64,000 nt of DNA from Escherichia coli. GTDB lineage: Bacteria > Pseudomonadota > Gammaproteobacteria > Enterobacterales > Enterobacteriaceae. A model generated the notes under the pieces. It ran no database searches. It saw only the letters and a program-made list of their open reading frames with translations, and was not told where the DNA came from. Positions 5,419 to 46,285 of this stretch are shown piece after piece. Position 1 is the first letter of the stretch. Every line of letters starts with the position of its first letter. Position numbers and translations under genes: made by a program. The DNA lies in assembly GCF_029227855.1 (NCBI RefSeq), contig NZ_CP074356.1. One strand, 5' to 3'.

Positions 5419-5735
5419 AAAATTCCCCTATCCAACTTTGGCACATCTATTGCTTTGTTATACAAGGCAAAGCTTGAACCAGCATCAGTACAACCCGGTT
5501 GCACCACAGCAATCCACGGGTAGCACCAAAAGAGTGCATTTTAAGAATTTTGCTTCGGAATGGTGCGGCGCATCTCGCAAAAACAAACAATAAAACAGCA
5601 ATATCTTTACATTTAACCAAACTAAATGTTACCTAACAGGCACAACACTGCACAATAAAGTTGCAGACGATAACAACACAAACACTCACAACAGGTATCC
5701 ATGCGTTCTTAACGCAGAAGATAAAGGAGTTGGAT

Positions 5736-6644
5736 ATGCAATTACGTAAACCTGCCACAGCAATCCTCGCCCTGGCGCTTTCCGCAGGACTGGCACAGGC
5801 AGATGACGCCGTCCCGGCAGCAGGCAGTACGCTGGACAAAATCGCCAAAAACGGCGTGATTGTCGTCGGTCACCGTGAATCTTCAGTACCTTTCTCTTAT
5901 TACGACAATCAGCAAAAAGTGGTGGGTTACTCGCAGGATTACTCCAACGCCATTGTTGAAGCAGTGAAAAAGAAACTCAACAAACCGGACTTGCAGGTAA
6001 AACTGATTCCGATTACCTCACAAAACCGTATTCCACTGCTGCAAAACGGCACTTTCGATTTTGAATGTGGTTCTACCACCAACAACGTCGAACGCCAAAA
6101 ACAGGCGGCTTTCTCTGACACTATTTTCGTGGTCGGTACGCGCCTGCTGACCAAAAAGGGCGGCGATATCAAAGATTTCGCCGATCTGAAAGGTAAAGCC
6201 GTAGTCGTCACTTCCGGCACTACCTCTGAAGTTTTGCTCAACAAACTGAATGAAGAGCAAAAAATGAATATGCGAATTATCAGCGCCAAAGATCACGGTG
6301 ACTCTTTCCGCACCCTGGAAAGCGGTCGTGCCGTTGCCTTTATGATGGATGATGCTCTGCTGGCTGGTGAACGTGCGAAAGCGAAGAAACCAGACAACTG
6401 GGAAATCGTCGGCAAGCCGCAGTCTCAGGAAGCCTACGGTTGCATGTTGCGTAAAGACGATCCGCAGTTCAAAAAGCTGATGGATGACACTATCGCTCAG
6501 GTGCAGACCTCCGGTGAAGCGGAAAAATGGTTTGATAAATGGTTCAAAAACCCAATTCCGCCGAAAAACCTGAACATGAATTTCGAACTGTCAGACGAAA
6601 TGAAAGCACTGTTCAAAGAACCGAATGACAAGGCACTGAACTAA
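5736..6644 (+). CDS. gltI: Glutamate/aspartate periplasmic binding protein GltI
   Basis: ATG at 5736 with aaggag RBS and signal peptide MQLRKPATAILALALSAGLAQA; ORF track extends to 5661 in frame. Confidence 0.93.
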   Translation: MQLRKPATAILALALSAGLAQADDAVPAAGSTLDKIAKNGVIVVGHRESSVPFSYYDNQQKVVGYSQDYSNAIVEAVKKKLNKPDLQVKLIPITSQNRIPLLQNGTFDFECGSTTNNVERQKQAAFSDTIFVVGTRLLTKKGGDIKDFADLKGKAVVVTSGTTSEVLLNKLNEEQKMNMRIISAKDHGDSFRTLESGRAVAFMMDDALLAGERAKAKKPDNWEIVGKPQSQEAYGCMLRKDDPQFKKLMDDTIAQVQTSGEAEKWFDKWFKNPIPPKNLNMNFELSDEMKALFKEPNDKALN

Positions 6645-6800
6645 TTACAAGAACCAGGGGCGGAAATTCCAGCCCTCTCGATTGTTACGTAGCACGGACA
6701 GACTATACGCCTGATGGTCGTTCCCCATCGGGCCTGAAAACCGCAATACGCTGGGTAACAATCTTCGAGGGTAGCAGTTAACGCTGCTACCCTCTTTTTT
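6640..6800 (+). ncRNA. sroC: SroC-like sRNA processed from the gltI-gltJ spacer (GcvB sponge)
   Basis: Position at gltI 3' end/gltI-gltJ spacer ending at a strong intrinsic terminator matches the known location of SroC; 5' boundary approximate. Confidence 0.5.
6767..6800 (+). terminator. Intra-operon intrinsic terminator between gltI and gltJ
   Basis: Perfect 11-bp stem gagggtagcag/ctgctaccctc with loop ttaacg followed by tttttt. Confidence 0.8.
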
Positions 6801-6813
6801 CTGGAGTAGATTT

Positions 6814-7554
6814 ATGTCTATAGACTGGAACTGGGGTATTTTTTTACAACAAGCCCCGTTCGGCAACACCACCTATCTTGGTTGGATCTGGAGTGGTTTT
6901 CAGGTGACGATCGCTTTGTCGATCTGCGCCTGGATTATCGCTTTCCTCGTCGGTTCATTTTTCGGCATTTTACGTACCGTTCCAAACCGTTTTCTCTCCG
7001 GTCTGGGTACGTTGTATGTCGAACTGTTCCGCAACGTGCCGTTGATTGTGCAATTCTTTACCTGGTATCTGGTGATCCCGGAGCTGTTGCCGGAGAAAAT
7101 CGGCATGTGGTTTAAGGCCGAGCTGGATCCCAATATTCAGTTTTTCCTTTCATCCATGCTTTGCCTGGGGCTGTTTACCGCCGCCCGTGTTTGCGAACAG
7201 GTACGCGCCGCGATCCAGTCGCTGCCGCGTGGGCAGAAGAATGCCGCGCTGGCGATGGGTCTGACGCTGCCGCAGGCTTACCGCTATGTACTGTTGCCTA
7301 ATGCTTATCGCGTTATCGTCCCGCCGATGACCTCCGAGATGATGAACCTGGTGAAAAACTCCGCCATCGCCTCGACCATCGGTCTGGTGGATATGGCAGC
7401 GCAGGCCGGTAAATTGCTTGATTACTCAGCCCACGCCTGGGAGTCGTTTACCGCCATTACGCTTGCGTATGTGTTGATTAACGCTTTTATCATGCTGGTG
7501 ATGACGCTGGTTGAACGTAAAGTTCGCCTGCCCGGCAACATGGGGGGCAAATAA
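6814..7554 (+). CDS. gltJ: Glutamate/aspartate ABC transporter permease GltJ
   Basis: 246 aa polar amino-acid ABC permease; follows gltI. Confidence 0.94.
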
Positions 7555-8228
7555 TGTACGAGTTTGACTGGAGTTCCATTGTCCCTTCCCTGCCATATCT
7601 GCTGGATGGGCTGGTGATCACCCTGAAAATCACCGTCACGGCAGTCGTGATTGGTATTTTGTGGGGCACCATGCTGGCGGTGATGCGCTTGTCCAGCTTT
7701 GCGCCCGTAGCGTGGTTTGCCAAAGCCTACGTTAACGTATTCCGCTCGATTCCTTTAGTTATGGTTTTGCTGTGGTTTTACCTGATTGTGCCGGGTTTTC
7801 TGCAAAACGTGCTGGGATTATCGCCAAAAAATGATATCCGTTTAATTTCGGCAATGGTGGCGTTTTCGATGTTTGAAGCGGCCTACTATTCAGAGATTAT
7901 CCGTGCCGGTATTCAAAGTATTTCCCGTGGTCAGTCGAGCGCCGCGCTGGCGTTGGGAATGACTCACTGGCAGTCGATGAAACTGATTATTCTGCCGCAG
8001 GCTTTCCGCGCGATGGTGCCGCTGCTGCTCACTCAGGGCATCGTACTGTTCCAGGATACCTCGCTGGTGTATGTGTTATCTCTGGCCGATTTCTTCCGTA
8101 CCGCCTCAACCATTGGTGAGCGTGATGGTACGCAGGTTGAGATGATCCTGTTTGCCGGATTTGTTTATTTCGTTATTAGCCTTAGCGCGTCGTTGTTGGT
8201 CAGCTACTTGAAAAGAAGGACAGCATAA
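7554..8228 (+). CDS. gltK: Glutamate/aspartate ABC transporter permease GltK
   Basis: 224 aa permease; TAATG overlap with gltJ. Confidence 0.94.
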
Positions 8229-8953
8229 TGATTACCCTGAAAAATGTTTCAAAATGGTATGGTCACTTTCAGGTGCTGACCGACTGCTCAACCGAAGTGA
8301 AAAAAGGCGAAGTGGTGGTGGTTTGCGGCCCGTCTGGTTCCGGTAAATCAACGCTGATTAAAACCGTCAACGGCCTCGAACCGGTGCAGCAAGGTGAAAT
8401 CACCGTCGATGGTATCGTGGTTAACGATAAGAAAACCGATCTGGCAAAGCTGCGTTCCCGCGTCGGGATGGTGTTCCAGCATTTCGAGTTGTTCCCCCAT
8501 TTGTCGATTATTGAAAACCTGACCCTGGCGCAGGTGAAAGTGCTAAAACGCGATAAAGCACCCGCTCGTGAAAAAGCATTGAAATTGCTGGAGCGCGTCG
8601 GGCTTTCCGCTCATGCCAATAAGTTTCCGGCGCAGCTTTCCGGCGGTCAGCAGCAGCGTGTGGCGATCGCTCGCGCATTGTGCATGGATCCTATTGCCAT
8701 GCTGTTCGACGAACCGACATCGGCGCTGGATCCGGAGATGATCAACGAAGTGCTGGACGTAATGGTCGAACTGGCGAATGAAGGAATGACCATGATGGTG
8801 GTGACCCACGAAATGGGCTTTGCCCGTAAAGTGGCGAATCGGGTGATCTTTATGGACGAGGGTAAAATTGTCGAAGACTCGCCGAAAGACGCTTTCTTCG
8901 ATGATCCGAAATCGGACCGCGCAAAAGACTTCCTCGCGAAAATCCTGCATTAA
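8228..8953 (+). CDS. gltL: Glutamate/aspartate ABC transporter ATP-binding protein GltL
   Basis: Walker [13 protein letters not shown] signature LSGGQQQR, Walker [12 protein letters not shown]. Confidence 0.95.
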
Positions 8954-28005: not shown

Positions 28006-28036
28006 AAAAAAAACCCGCTGATTAAGCGGGTTTTGA
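28006..28036. terminator. Bidirectional intrinsic terminator between crcB and cspE
   Basis: aaaaaaacccgct-gatta-agcgggtttt. Confidence 0.8.
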
Positions 28037-28053
28037 ATTCTTGCTGACGTATC

Positions 28054-28263
28054 TTACAGAGCGATTACGTTTGCAGCAGAAGGGCCTTTGGCACCGTTAG
28101 TGATTTCGAACTCTACGCGCTGACCTTCAGCAAGAGTTTTAAAACCATTAGTCTGGATTGCAGAGAAGTGTACAAACACGTCTTTGCTGCCGTCTTCCGG
28201 AGTAATGAAACCGAATCCTTTGGACTCATTAAACCACTTAACGTTACCTTTAATCTTAGACAT
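28054..28263 (-). CDS. cspE: Cold-shock-domain protein CspE
   Basis: 69 aa from [20 protein letters not shown]; RNP1/RNP2 motifs. Confidence 0.95.
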
Positions 28264-28437
28264 CAAAATTACCTTTACATGAAAAATAGACACAAATGCT
28301 GTGTCGGTTACCAGTACACCAATTGTGGTACGCTTTGTCCAGTGCAACTTTACTAAAAAGTGATAAAAGTCGCGTTATTTTTGATGTTAATTATTTTACC
28401 CATTGATTTTAAAGAGTTTACTAAAATTTCATTTGTC

Positions 28438-40469: not shown

Positions 40470-40503
40470 GCCCGCCAGGTAAGCCCACCTGGCGGGCTTT
40501 TTT
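40470..40503 (+). terminator. Intrinsic terminator after citT
   Basis: gcccgccaggt-aagccc-acctggcgggc then tttttt. Confidence 0.8.
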
Positions 40504-41358: not shown

Positions 41359-41504
41359 TCCTCTGATTTACAAAACACGCTAATTCGTCTTCCATAAACC
41401 ATGACGATTAAGATTTATACATAATGCGCTACATTGAGGAATTCCCTGAATGTGACGCAAATCACTTCAAAGAGTGAGCAACAGTCAGTATCATCATGTG
41501 AGTT

Positions 41505-41537
41505 AAACCCTCGCCGCCTGACGGTGAGGGTTTTCTT
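41505..41537 (+). terminator. Probable native rna terminator just upstream of the IS200 left end
   Basis: aaaccctcgccg-cctga-cggtgagggttt followed by tcttg. Confidence 0.55.
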
Positions 41538-42246
41538 GTGCACAGAAAACCCCCAGCTAGGCTGGGGGTTCCGGAAAGCTTTCAGCTTTGAGCCTGTTAT
41601 TAAAACCCCTTTTGATTTGTTAAAACACCTTGCGGTCTGGCAACTGCAAGTGTCAAACAAGAAATCAAAAGGGGGTCCCAATGGGGAACGAAAAGAGCTT
41701 AGCGCACACCCGATGGAACTGTAAATATCACATAGTTTTTGCGCCAAAATACCGAAGACAGGTGTTCTACAGAGAGAAGCGTAGAGCAATAGGCAGTATT
41801 TTGAGAAAGCTGTGTGAGTGGAAAAGCGTACGGATTCTGGAAGCTGAATGCTGTGCAGATCATATCCATATGCTTGTGGAGATCCCGCCTAAAATGAGCG
41901 TATCCGGGTTTATGGGATATCTGAAAGGGAAAAGCAGTCTGATGCTTTACGAGCAGTTTGGTGATTTGAAATTCAAATACAGGAACAGGGAGTTCTGGTG
42001 CAGAGGGTACTACGTCGATACAGTGGGTAAGAACACGGCGAAGATACAGGATTACACAAAGCACCAGCTTGAAGAGGATAAAATGGGAGAGCAGTTATCG
42101 ATTCCCTATCCGGGCAGCCCGTTTACGGGCCGTAAGTAACGAAGTTGGATGCAAATGTCAGATCGTGTGCGCCTGTTAGGGCGCGGCTGGTAAGAGAGCC
42201 TTATAGGCGCATTTGAAAAACCTCCGGCTATGCCGGAGGATATTTA
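41538..42246 (+). mobile_element. IS200-family insertion sequence (IS200/IS605 family), boundaries approximate
   Basis: Single Y1 HUH transposase ORF with left-end hairpin (41549..41569), 69-nt stem sequestering the tnpA RBS (41606..41674) and right-end hairpin (42221..42239); about 709 bp, no terminal inverted repeats. Confidence 0.6.
41681..42139 (+). CDS. tnpA: IS200 transposase TnpA (HUH single-strand transposase)
   Basis: 152 aa; HuH motif (DHIHMLV) and C-terminal Tyr region; aaaggggg RBS. Confidence 0.93.
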   Translation: MGNEKSLAHTRWNCKYHIVFAPKYRRQVFYREKRRAIGSILRKLCEWKSVRILEAECCADHIHMLVEIPPKMSVSGFMGYLKGKSSLMLYEQFGDLKFKYRNREFWCRGYYVDTVGKNTAKIQDYTKHQLEEDKMGEQLSIPYPGSPFTGRK

Positions 42247-45914: not shown

Positions 45915-46285
45915 CTATACTTCCTCCGTGTTTTCGATGAGATGTAAGGTAACCAATTTTTGCCGATTCGGCTAATGCGTTTCCATTATCAAATCGATAA
46001 GTTTTACCTTACAACCTTCGTAAGACAACTTTGTGAACTTTGCACCGCCAGCGGCGATAAAAAGTAAAATGGCCCCCTTTCCAGGTGACCGTGTAATCTG
46101 AACTACCCTTTGGTATCTTCAGCGCCTGCCTGCAGGCTGAGGTGTTGCCCTTACAAATGCAACAACGACATGGATTACAACACCCTCATAAACAAAGGGC
46201 AATCACCTGATCTAAGCTCTTACCTATGACAGTGATAGGTTATGCCTTTTACCCGACTTTTGCACTGACTGAAAAGGACAAATTA

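Follow-up and report, generated by a model that had tools for sequence, protein, structure and literature searches.

SroC offers a textbook example of a regulator made from a fragment of an mRNA. Miyakoshi, Chao and Vogel demonstrated that this RNA has no promoter of its own and that RNase E frees it from the gltI-sroC transcript, a step that needs Hfq and a 5′ monophosphate (PMC4474525). A leaky Rho-independent terminator generates its 3′ end and also gives rise to a monocistronic gltI mRNA; leakiness is required here, as the single gltI promoter also has to serve gltJKL (PMC4474525). A 163-nt SroC species has been reported (PMC9438474). The main target is itself a small RNA, GcvB, which is degraded by RNase E on pairing with SroC and whose half-life of 1.7 min lengthened to more than 15 min once sroC was deleted (PMC4474525). 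The two contacts involved, BS1 and BS2, were validated by compensatory mutation of SroC C63 and C87 against GcvB G160 and G14, and probing in Salmonella placed BS1 in an accessible internal loop (PMC4474525). Additionally, the E. coli homologues of GcvB and SroC were found to be equally functional (PMC4474525).

In E. coli, RIL-seq recovered 67,138 sroC-GcvB chimeric reads, and in stationary phase up to about 70% of GcvB was present in GcvB-SroC hybrids (PMC9299463). SroC has also been reported to sponge MgrR and to repress fliE and flhBAE (PMC9438474). Through this RNA, Glu/Asp transporter expression is tied to the entire GcvB regulon (roughly 1% of E. coli genes) and, by way of MgrR, to LPS modification.

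Identity and distribution of the locus

The window, that is, the whole stretch of E. coli DNA that was analysed (64,000 nt), carries the gltIJKL operon near its start. An earlier note, made from the letters alone, had assigned the gltI-gltJ spacer to SroC at positions 6640–6800 and had named an alignment with the annotated K-12 sroC and an Rfam covariance-model scan as checks. Both agree with the assignment. In the scan of the whole window, the sroC family (RF00369) matched 6640–6802 on the plus strand over model positions 1–163 of 163, with 174.8 bits and E = 7e-37, against a gathering score of 45 bits for that model. The alignment of 6620–6830 (211 nt) with K-12 MG1655 (NC_000913.3) gave 100% identity; the K-12 record annotates there an ncRNA, sroC (b4763, small regulatory RNA SroC, 686681–686843), between gltI and gltJ. 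Projected on the window, this annotation spans 6640–6802, so that the coordinates first proposed were nearly exact. The operon-level features are as follows.

5660–5693, plus strand: GcvB target within the 5′ UTR of gltI, best duplex with GcvB nt 63–92; the other arm of the published SroC/GcvB/gltI loop
5736–6644, plus strand: gltI CDS (909 nt), periplasmic Glu/Asp-binding protein and parental mRNA of SroC; length and 3′ end as in K-12 b0655
6640–6802, plus strand: SroC small RNA, 163 nt, matching the full RF00369 model and identical to K-12 sroC
6803–7554, plus strand: likely gltJ ribosome-binding site (GGAG, 6803–6806) and gltJ CDS (6814–7554, 741 nt as in K-12), starting directly after the terminator
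7554–8953, plus strand: gltK (7554–8228) and gltL (8228–8953), ORF lengths as in K-12, predicted to depend on terminator read-through

The sroC locus thus occupies the spacer between gltI and gltJ, on the same strand as the operon and over the gltI stop codon (TAA, 6642–6644), in the same layout as in K-12, and this layout recurs in other genera. SroC overlaps gltI by 5 nt at its 5′ end and finishes at the terminator U-tract. The 3′ end of gltI had been described as part of SroC; the overlap is real, and it is limited to the last 5 nt of the gene (6640–6644). With regard to the other arm of the loop, the gltI 5′ UTR ranked first among 397 window tiles of 161 nt scored against the R1 seed of GcvB, with −35.6 kcal/mol where the tiles averaged −22.4 (sd 3.2), and the site at 5660–5693 agrees with the published CA-rich GcvB site in gltI (PMC4474525). 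SroC as a primary transcript from an internal promoter was also considered: a consensus sigma-70 scan of the plus strand between 5300 and 9300 returned no site, but it missed the gltI promoter too and is too insensitive to count.

A 231-nt stretch around sroC was found in 5421 of 5426 complete E. coli genomes (absent from five), almost always once per genome (median, one place), and it was at least 99% identical in 5372 of them; the partner gene gcvB was present in 5425 of the 5426. Two of the 5431 matching places of the gltI-sroC-gltJ stretch were on records classed as plasmids. The expectation that an annotation restricted to coding sequences would overlook this RNA was borne out, since RefSeq/PGAP records show only gltI and gltJ over the stretch. 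In fact, PGAP places no feature for sroC or gcvB under the matches in RefSeq E. coli records, and the curated K-12 record alone has both. It is almost certain that 6640–6802 on the plus strand is the sroC locus of E. coli, the mechanism proposed below included. The locus is already known and identical to the K-12 reference, with nothing new in it; its value here is that of an annotation check, in which a genuine, functional-looking locus proves invisible in PGAP-style annotations, and no new biology is involved.

The same Rfam scan returned other matches in the window. A rnk_leader (RF01771) covers 41434–41542 on the plus strand with 118.1 bits over the full model, and directly after it comes an STnc490 Hfq-binding RNA (RF01405) at 41548–41671 on the same strand, with 145.2 bits, also over the full model. 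The cspA thermoregulator family (RF01766) matched 28006–28364 on the minus strand with 119.4 bits (gathering score 78), over a 5′ UTR, CDS and terminator of cold-shock-protein type; this is probably a cspA paralogue rather than cspA itself, because the 5′ part aligns poorly to the model. A marginal match to STnc70 (RF02069) lies at 46059–46152 on the minus strand, with 44.1 bits where the gathering score is 40, and with 94 nt aligned on a model of 149 positions.

Fold, covariation and GcvB pairing sites

The segment 6640–6802 folds with a minimum free energy (MFE) of −66.3 kcal/mol, compared with −40.5 ± 4.0 for its dinucleotide shuffles (z = −6.5). In the MFE structure, stem-loop 1 (SL1) is followed by a long closing stem, which surrounds an internal loop and stem-loop 2 (SL2), and then by the terminator. 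The elements within SroC are listed here.

6657–6676, plus strand: SL1 of the MFE fold (helix 1), SroC nt 18–37
6680–6763, plus strand: long closing stem of the MFE fold (helix 2), SroC nt 41–54 with 111–124, around the internal loop and SL2
6696–6703, plus strand: BS1, GGACAGAC, SroC nt 57–64, an 8-nt perfect complement to K-12 GcvB nt 156–163 (R3/SL4 region)
6709–6733, plus strand: SL2 of the MFE fold (helix 5), SroC nt 70–94, with a 9-bp stem and a 7-nt loop
6718–6724, plus strand: BS2, UCGUUCC, SroC nt 79–85, exactly the SL2 loop, a 7-nt perfect complement to GcvB nt 13–19 (SL1 of GcvB)
6767–6800, plus strand: predicted Rho-independent terminator, a 12-pair hairpin (6767–6794) with U6 at 6795–6800, its arms invariant across genera

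Homologues were collected with the pattern ACTATAN{5,9}TGGTCGTTCCCCA, taking one genome per species. This search returned 82 loci, of which 80 had an enterobacterial gltI-gltJ spacer; the remaining two (L015 and L049) were chance matches to the pattern and were excluded. Seventy-eight of the 80 were labelled Enterobacteriaceae, one was a metagenome-assembled genome (MAG) labelled 'Proteobacteria bacterium' and one was labelled Chryseobacterium. This last record (L065, CACSKA010000002.1, Chryseobacterium sp. 18061) carries an enterobacterial gltI-sroC-gltJ arrangement close to that of L039 (Citrobacter sp. 18056); the two apparently come from the same isolate series, and the L065 record looks mislabelled or contaminated. 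In the proteobacterial MAG, a 9-nt tandem duplication (CTTAACTAA) lies where gltI stops and SroC begins (L010:5736-5760).

The alignment was built from 68 canonical, non-identical copies together with the window, giving 69 Enterobacteriaceae sequences. When the MFE structure of the window was projected on it, 91.5% of the cells were paired, compared with 42–53% when the partners were slid by one to three columns. Compensatory double changes were observed at 16 pairs, and the covariation score was 0.210, against 0.098 ± 0.004 in shuffles. In the SL2 stem, five of nine pairs showed compensatory changes and 97.5% of the cells were paired, while the closing stem had changes on both sides in eight of 13 pairs, with 88.9% of the cells paired. 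Helix 1 was paired in 90% of the cells over 68 distinct sequences, with two compensatory pairs. The terminator arms were essentially invariant in the 69 sequences. RNAalifold independently recovered the SL2 stem, the closing stem and the terminator. Two small helices of the E. coli MFE fold pair part of BS1; one of them (helix 4) was paired in only 60.8% of the cells, and the other (helix 3) was missing, as a gap in the alignment, from about 26 of 68 distinct sequences. The two helices partly over BS1 are not conserved, which fits the published accessible internal loop.

The pairing sites are intact. The 5′ end of SroC as annotated in the Salmonella paper lies such that the annotated 5′ end used here is numbered 3 nt later, and with this constant offset of +3 the five published Salmonella positions (G61, G65, G84, C63 and C87) map to the expected bases; C6699 in BS1 corresponds to C63 and C6723 in BS2 to C87. 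The motif GGACAG, the six bases of BS1 outside the search pattern, was invariant in 69 of 69 sequences, whereas its flanks and the bases just upstream vary. The invariance of BS2 in the same alignment is forced by the search pattern and is no evidence, but BS2 is highly conserved in the Rfam consensus. On the other hand, complementarity between SroC and GcvB is not significant when taken alone: four 7–8-mers were observed against 1.5 expected, and shuffled SroC gave at least two in 43% of trials. Two other 7–8-mers of equal length complementary to GcvB lie buried in stems. Since complementarity by itself is unremarkable, the case for the two sites rests on positional homology to validated sites together with conservation. 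A duplex calculated with RNAduplex from full-length SroC and GcvB was a meaningless all-against-all pairing and was discarded in favour of local tests.

An additional 8-nt perfect complement was observed at 6740–6747 (SroC nt 101–108, ACCGCAAU), facing GcvB nt 189–196, which belong to the terminator stem of GcvB. It equals BS1 in length but is partly paired in the MFE structure, and it is missing wherever the ACCG segment is lacking, as in many genera; it is probably a chance match.

The operon-internal terminator and its alternatives

The earlier note had pointed to a perfect 11-bp GC-rich hairpin followed by six T residues, and this description was confirmed: the hairpin at 6767–6794 reads GAGGGTAGCAG/TTAACG/CTGCTACCCTC, with 11 Watson-Crick pairs and a twelfth T-G wobble pair that closes a 4-nt loop, and TTTTTT follows directly 3′ of it at 6795–6800 (letters 6760–6816, aatcttcGAGGGTAGCAGttaaCGCTGCTACCCTCttttttctGGAGtagatttATG). 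The terminator scan counted seven G-C pairs among the 12, and the hairpin folded alone reaches −21.3 kcal/mol. Its distance to gltJ, put at 14 bp, was right to within one base, with 13 nt counted between the last T and the ATG at 6814. Over both strands of the 64 kb, only two hairpins had at least nine perfect pairs and a T-run, at 6767–6794 and 40470–40497, and none comparable (at least nine perfect pairs plus a T-run) arose in 30 composition-preserving block shuffles. The second, on the plus strand, is the sole other hairpin of the window with 11 perfect pairs and a T-run (GCCCGCCAGGTAAGCCCACCTGGCGGGC TTTTTTAT), and is presumably a strong intrinsic terminator.

The segment 6767–6800 would then form the 3′ end of both SroC and the monocistronic gltI mRNA, with read-through feeding gltJKL. 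According to the mechanism proposed for this locus, transcription from the single gltI promoter would partly stop at 6767–6800 to yield a gltI-only mRNA, and would otherwise continue into the full gltIJKL message. RNase E, acting with Hfq and 5′-monophosphate sensing, would trim the terminated transcript to a stable RNA of about 163 nt that starts 5 nt inside gltI. This RNA is predicted to be tightly folded through SL1, the closing stem, SL2 and the terminator, so as to expose BS1 in the internal loop and BS2 in the SL2 loop. With Hfq, the two sites would pair with distant parts of GcvB (nt 156–163 and nt 13–19), upon which RNase E would cleave GcvB while SroC survives. Titration of GcvB, the function given for SroC in the earlier note, is correct but incomplete, as pairing also triggers RNase E-dependent GcvB decay with SroC remaining stable (PMC4474525). 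The lowered GcvB level would de-repress the mRNAs of amino-acid and peptide transporters (dpp, opp and others), as well as gltI itself through the site at 5660–5693, which would close a positive loop. The same terminator would also set the excess of GltI over the membrane components GltJKL. Of this scheme, the analysis itself shows the identity to K-12 sroC, the fold with its covariation, both intact pairing sites, the terminator and the synteny, while the literature supplies the processing, the dependence on Hfq, the decay of GcvB and the phenotype.

That last role raises the question of whether the terminator could be the whole of the matter, with the spacer serving only as a cis-acting intra-operon attenuator of the GltI:GltJKL ratio and the RNA of about 160 nt being an inert decay remnant devoid of trans function. 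The terminator is real and stands exactly where ABC operons usually uncouple binding-protein and permease genes, the stoichiometric role was assigned to it by the Salmonella study itself (PMC4474525), and the complementarity to GcvB is, as mentioned, not significant by sequence statistics alone. However, 125 nt of conserved, covarying structure upstream would be needless for a mere terminator, as would an invariant internal-loop sequence matching GcvB for an attenuator. Furthermore, compensatory mutations and sroC deletions alter GcvB stability while deletion of gltJKL has no such effect, and plasmid-borne SroC supplied in trans was reported for Salmonella to lower GcvB in a strain lacking gltIJKL (PMC4474525). 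An attenuator with no RNA function is accordingly very improbable; the attenuator role coexists with the small RNA role and does not replace it.

The likelihood is smaller still for two further readings of the spacer. The E. coli SL2 stem (GCCTGATGG...CCATCGGGC) has a likeness to the arms of REP elements, and in other ABC operons such elements do follow binding-protein genes, so that the spacer might be conceived as a REP/BIME-type or other repetitive extragenic element protecting the gltI mRNA from 3′ exonucleases. However, the stretch occurs at a median of one place per genome and is no dispersed multi-copy repeat. The REP-like letters are found only in Escherichia, Citrobacter and Salmonella, whereas elsewhere the stem reads GTCAGGTGG, GTTGAGTGG or GGCGGCTGG around an unchanged loop; since the stem letters differ between genera with the same loop, the likeness arises incidentally from a stem that covaries freely. 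Genuine ERIC-like repeats inserted in other species come on top of the SroC core rather than forming part of it. A REP origin of SL2 was rejected because of the clade-specific letters in a covarying stem and the single-copy locus, and the protective-repeat reading as a whole is given next to no credence. The same negligible weight is given to a small protein encoded on the opposite strand, where an ORF of 75 aa (ATG/GTG to stop, 6645–6872, minus strand) does cross the spacer, but homologous spacers vary from 149 to 163 nt through indels of 1, 2, 5 and 7 nt that break any frame. The substitutions in them are paired stem changes and not codon-like, and the ORF overlaps the gltJ start; this candidate was rejected on account of the frame-breaking indels among homologues.

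Conservation extends beyond the GcvB contacts to the blocks CCCTC (6674–6678) and CGAT (6679–6682) and to the single-stranded linker CTTCGAG (6763–6769) before the terminator, all of which are invariant and are left unexplained by GcvB pairing. They could equally be contacts for Hfq or RNase E, or serve a further partner, for example MgrR or fliE. One doubtful extension of the sroC reading is that termination at 6767–6800 is regulated rather than passively leaky, with a cis element or a trans factor choosing between gltI plus SroC and the full gltIJKL transcript, as was already raised as a possibility by the authors of the 2015 paper (PMC4474525). It may be speculated that CCCUC, in the 3′ arm of SL1, pairs with GAGGG in the 5′ arm of the terminator as an anti-terminator; both motifs are invariant, and covariation is therefore silent on any such alternative fold.

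Comparison with other genera and other RNAs

Relative to K-12 SroC (b4763), the RNA shows no difference in sequence, length, position, strand, fold, terminator or either GcvB site. The SroC of Salmonella Typhimurium has the same gltI-gltJ position, strand, fold and pair of GcvB sites. The terminator, in turn, differs between genera. In Escherichia, a 7-nt insertion (AGTTAAC) lengthens the stem to its 12 pairs, −21.3 kcal/mol and U6, whereas the terminators of Salmonella, Citrobacter, Enterobacter and Klebsiella (compared in L004, L055, L069 and others) have 7–9 pairs, about −10.4 kcal/mol and U8. The Escherichia hairpin thus has about twice the stability of the type that Salmonella shares with most other genera. 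Kluyvera carries different, independent apex insertions, with −17 to −20.6 kcal/mol. Read-through into gltJKL and the yield of SroC may therefore differ between genera, and since leakiness was shown in Salmonella, with its weaker hairpin, the read-through efficiency in E. coli is an extrapolation. If regulated termination were true, the doubled hairpin stability specific to Escherichia would represent an E. coli set-point other than that of Salmonella.

Several homologous spacers contain repeats of about 120 nt, which we take to be ERIC/IRU-like, placed on either side of the SL1-SL2 core and expanding the spacer from about 169 to about 285 nt. The repeat lies between the gltI stop and SL1 in six loci (L022, L028, L032, L036, L073 and L080), where it parts SL1 from the gltI stop region, the normal place of SroC 5′ end formation. 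It lies between SL2 and the terminator in L018, L065, L079 and probably L039. The SroC core, the terminator and gltJ were kept in each repeat-bearing locus.

Among processed small RNAs derived from mRNA 3′ ends, within operons or at their ends, CpxQ, SdhX, MalH, OppZ and NarS resemble SroC in that they have no promoter of their own, share a terminator with the parental mRNA, owe their 5′ end to RNase E and require Hfq (PMC9438474). They mostly repress mRNAs through a seed, whereas the main target of SroC is another small RNA; furthermore, the SroC terminator is operon-internal and leaky instead of standing at the operon's end. Other bacterial sponges of small RNAs are the chbBC spacer, which acts on ChiX, and 3′ETS-leuZ, which acts on RyhB and RybB; like SroC, they are transcript by-products that pair with an Hfq-dependent small RNA and lower its activity. 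The chbBC spacer, however, destabilises the ChiX terminator and opens it to PNPase, whereas SroC relies on two short additive sites and on a 5′-end-independent cleavage of GcvB by RNase E.
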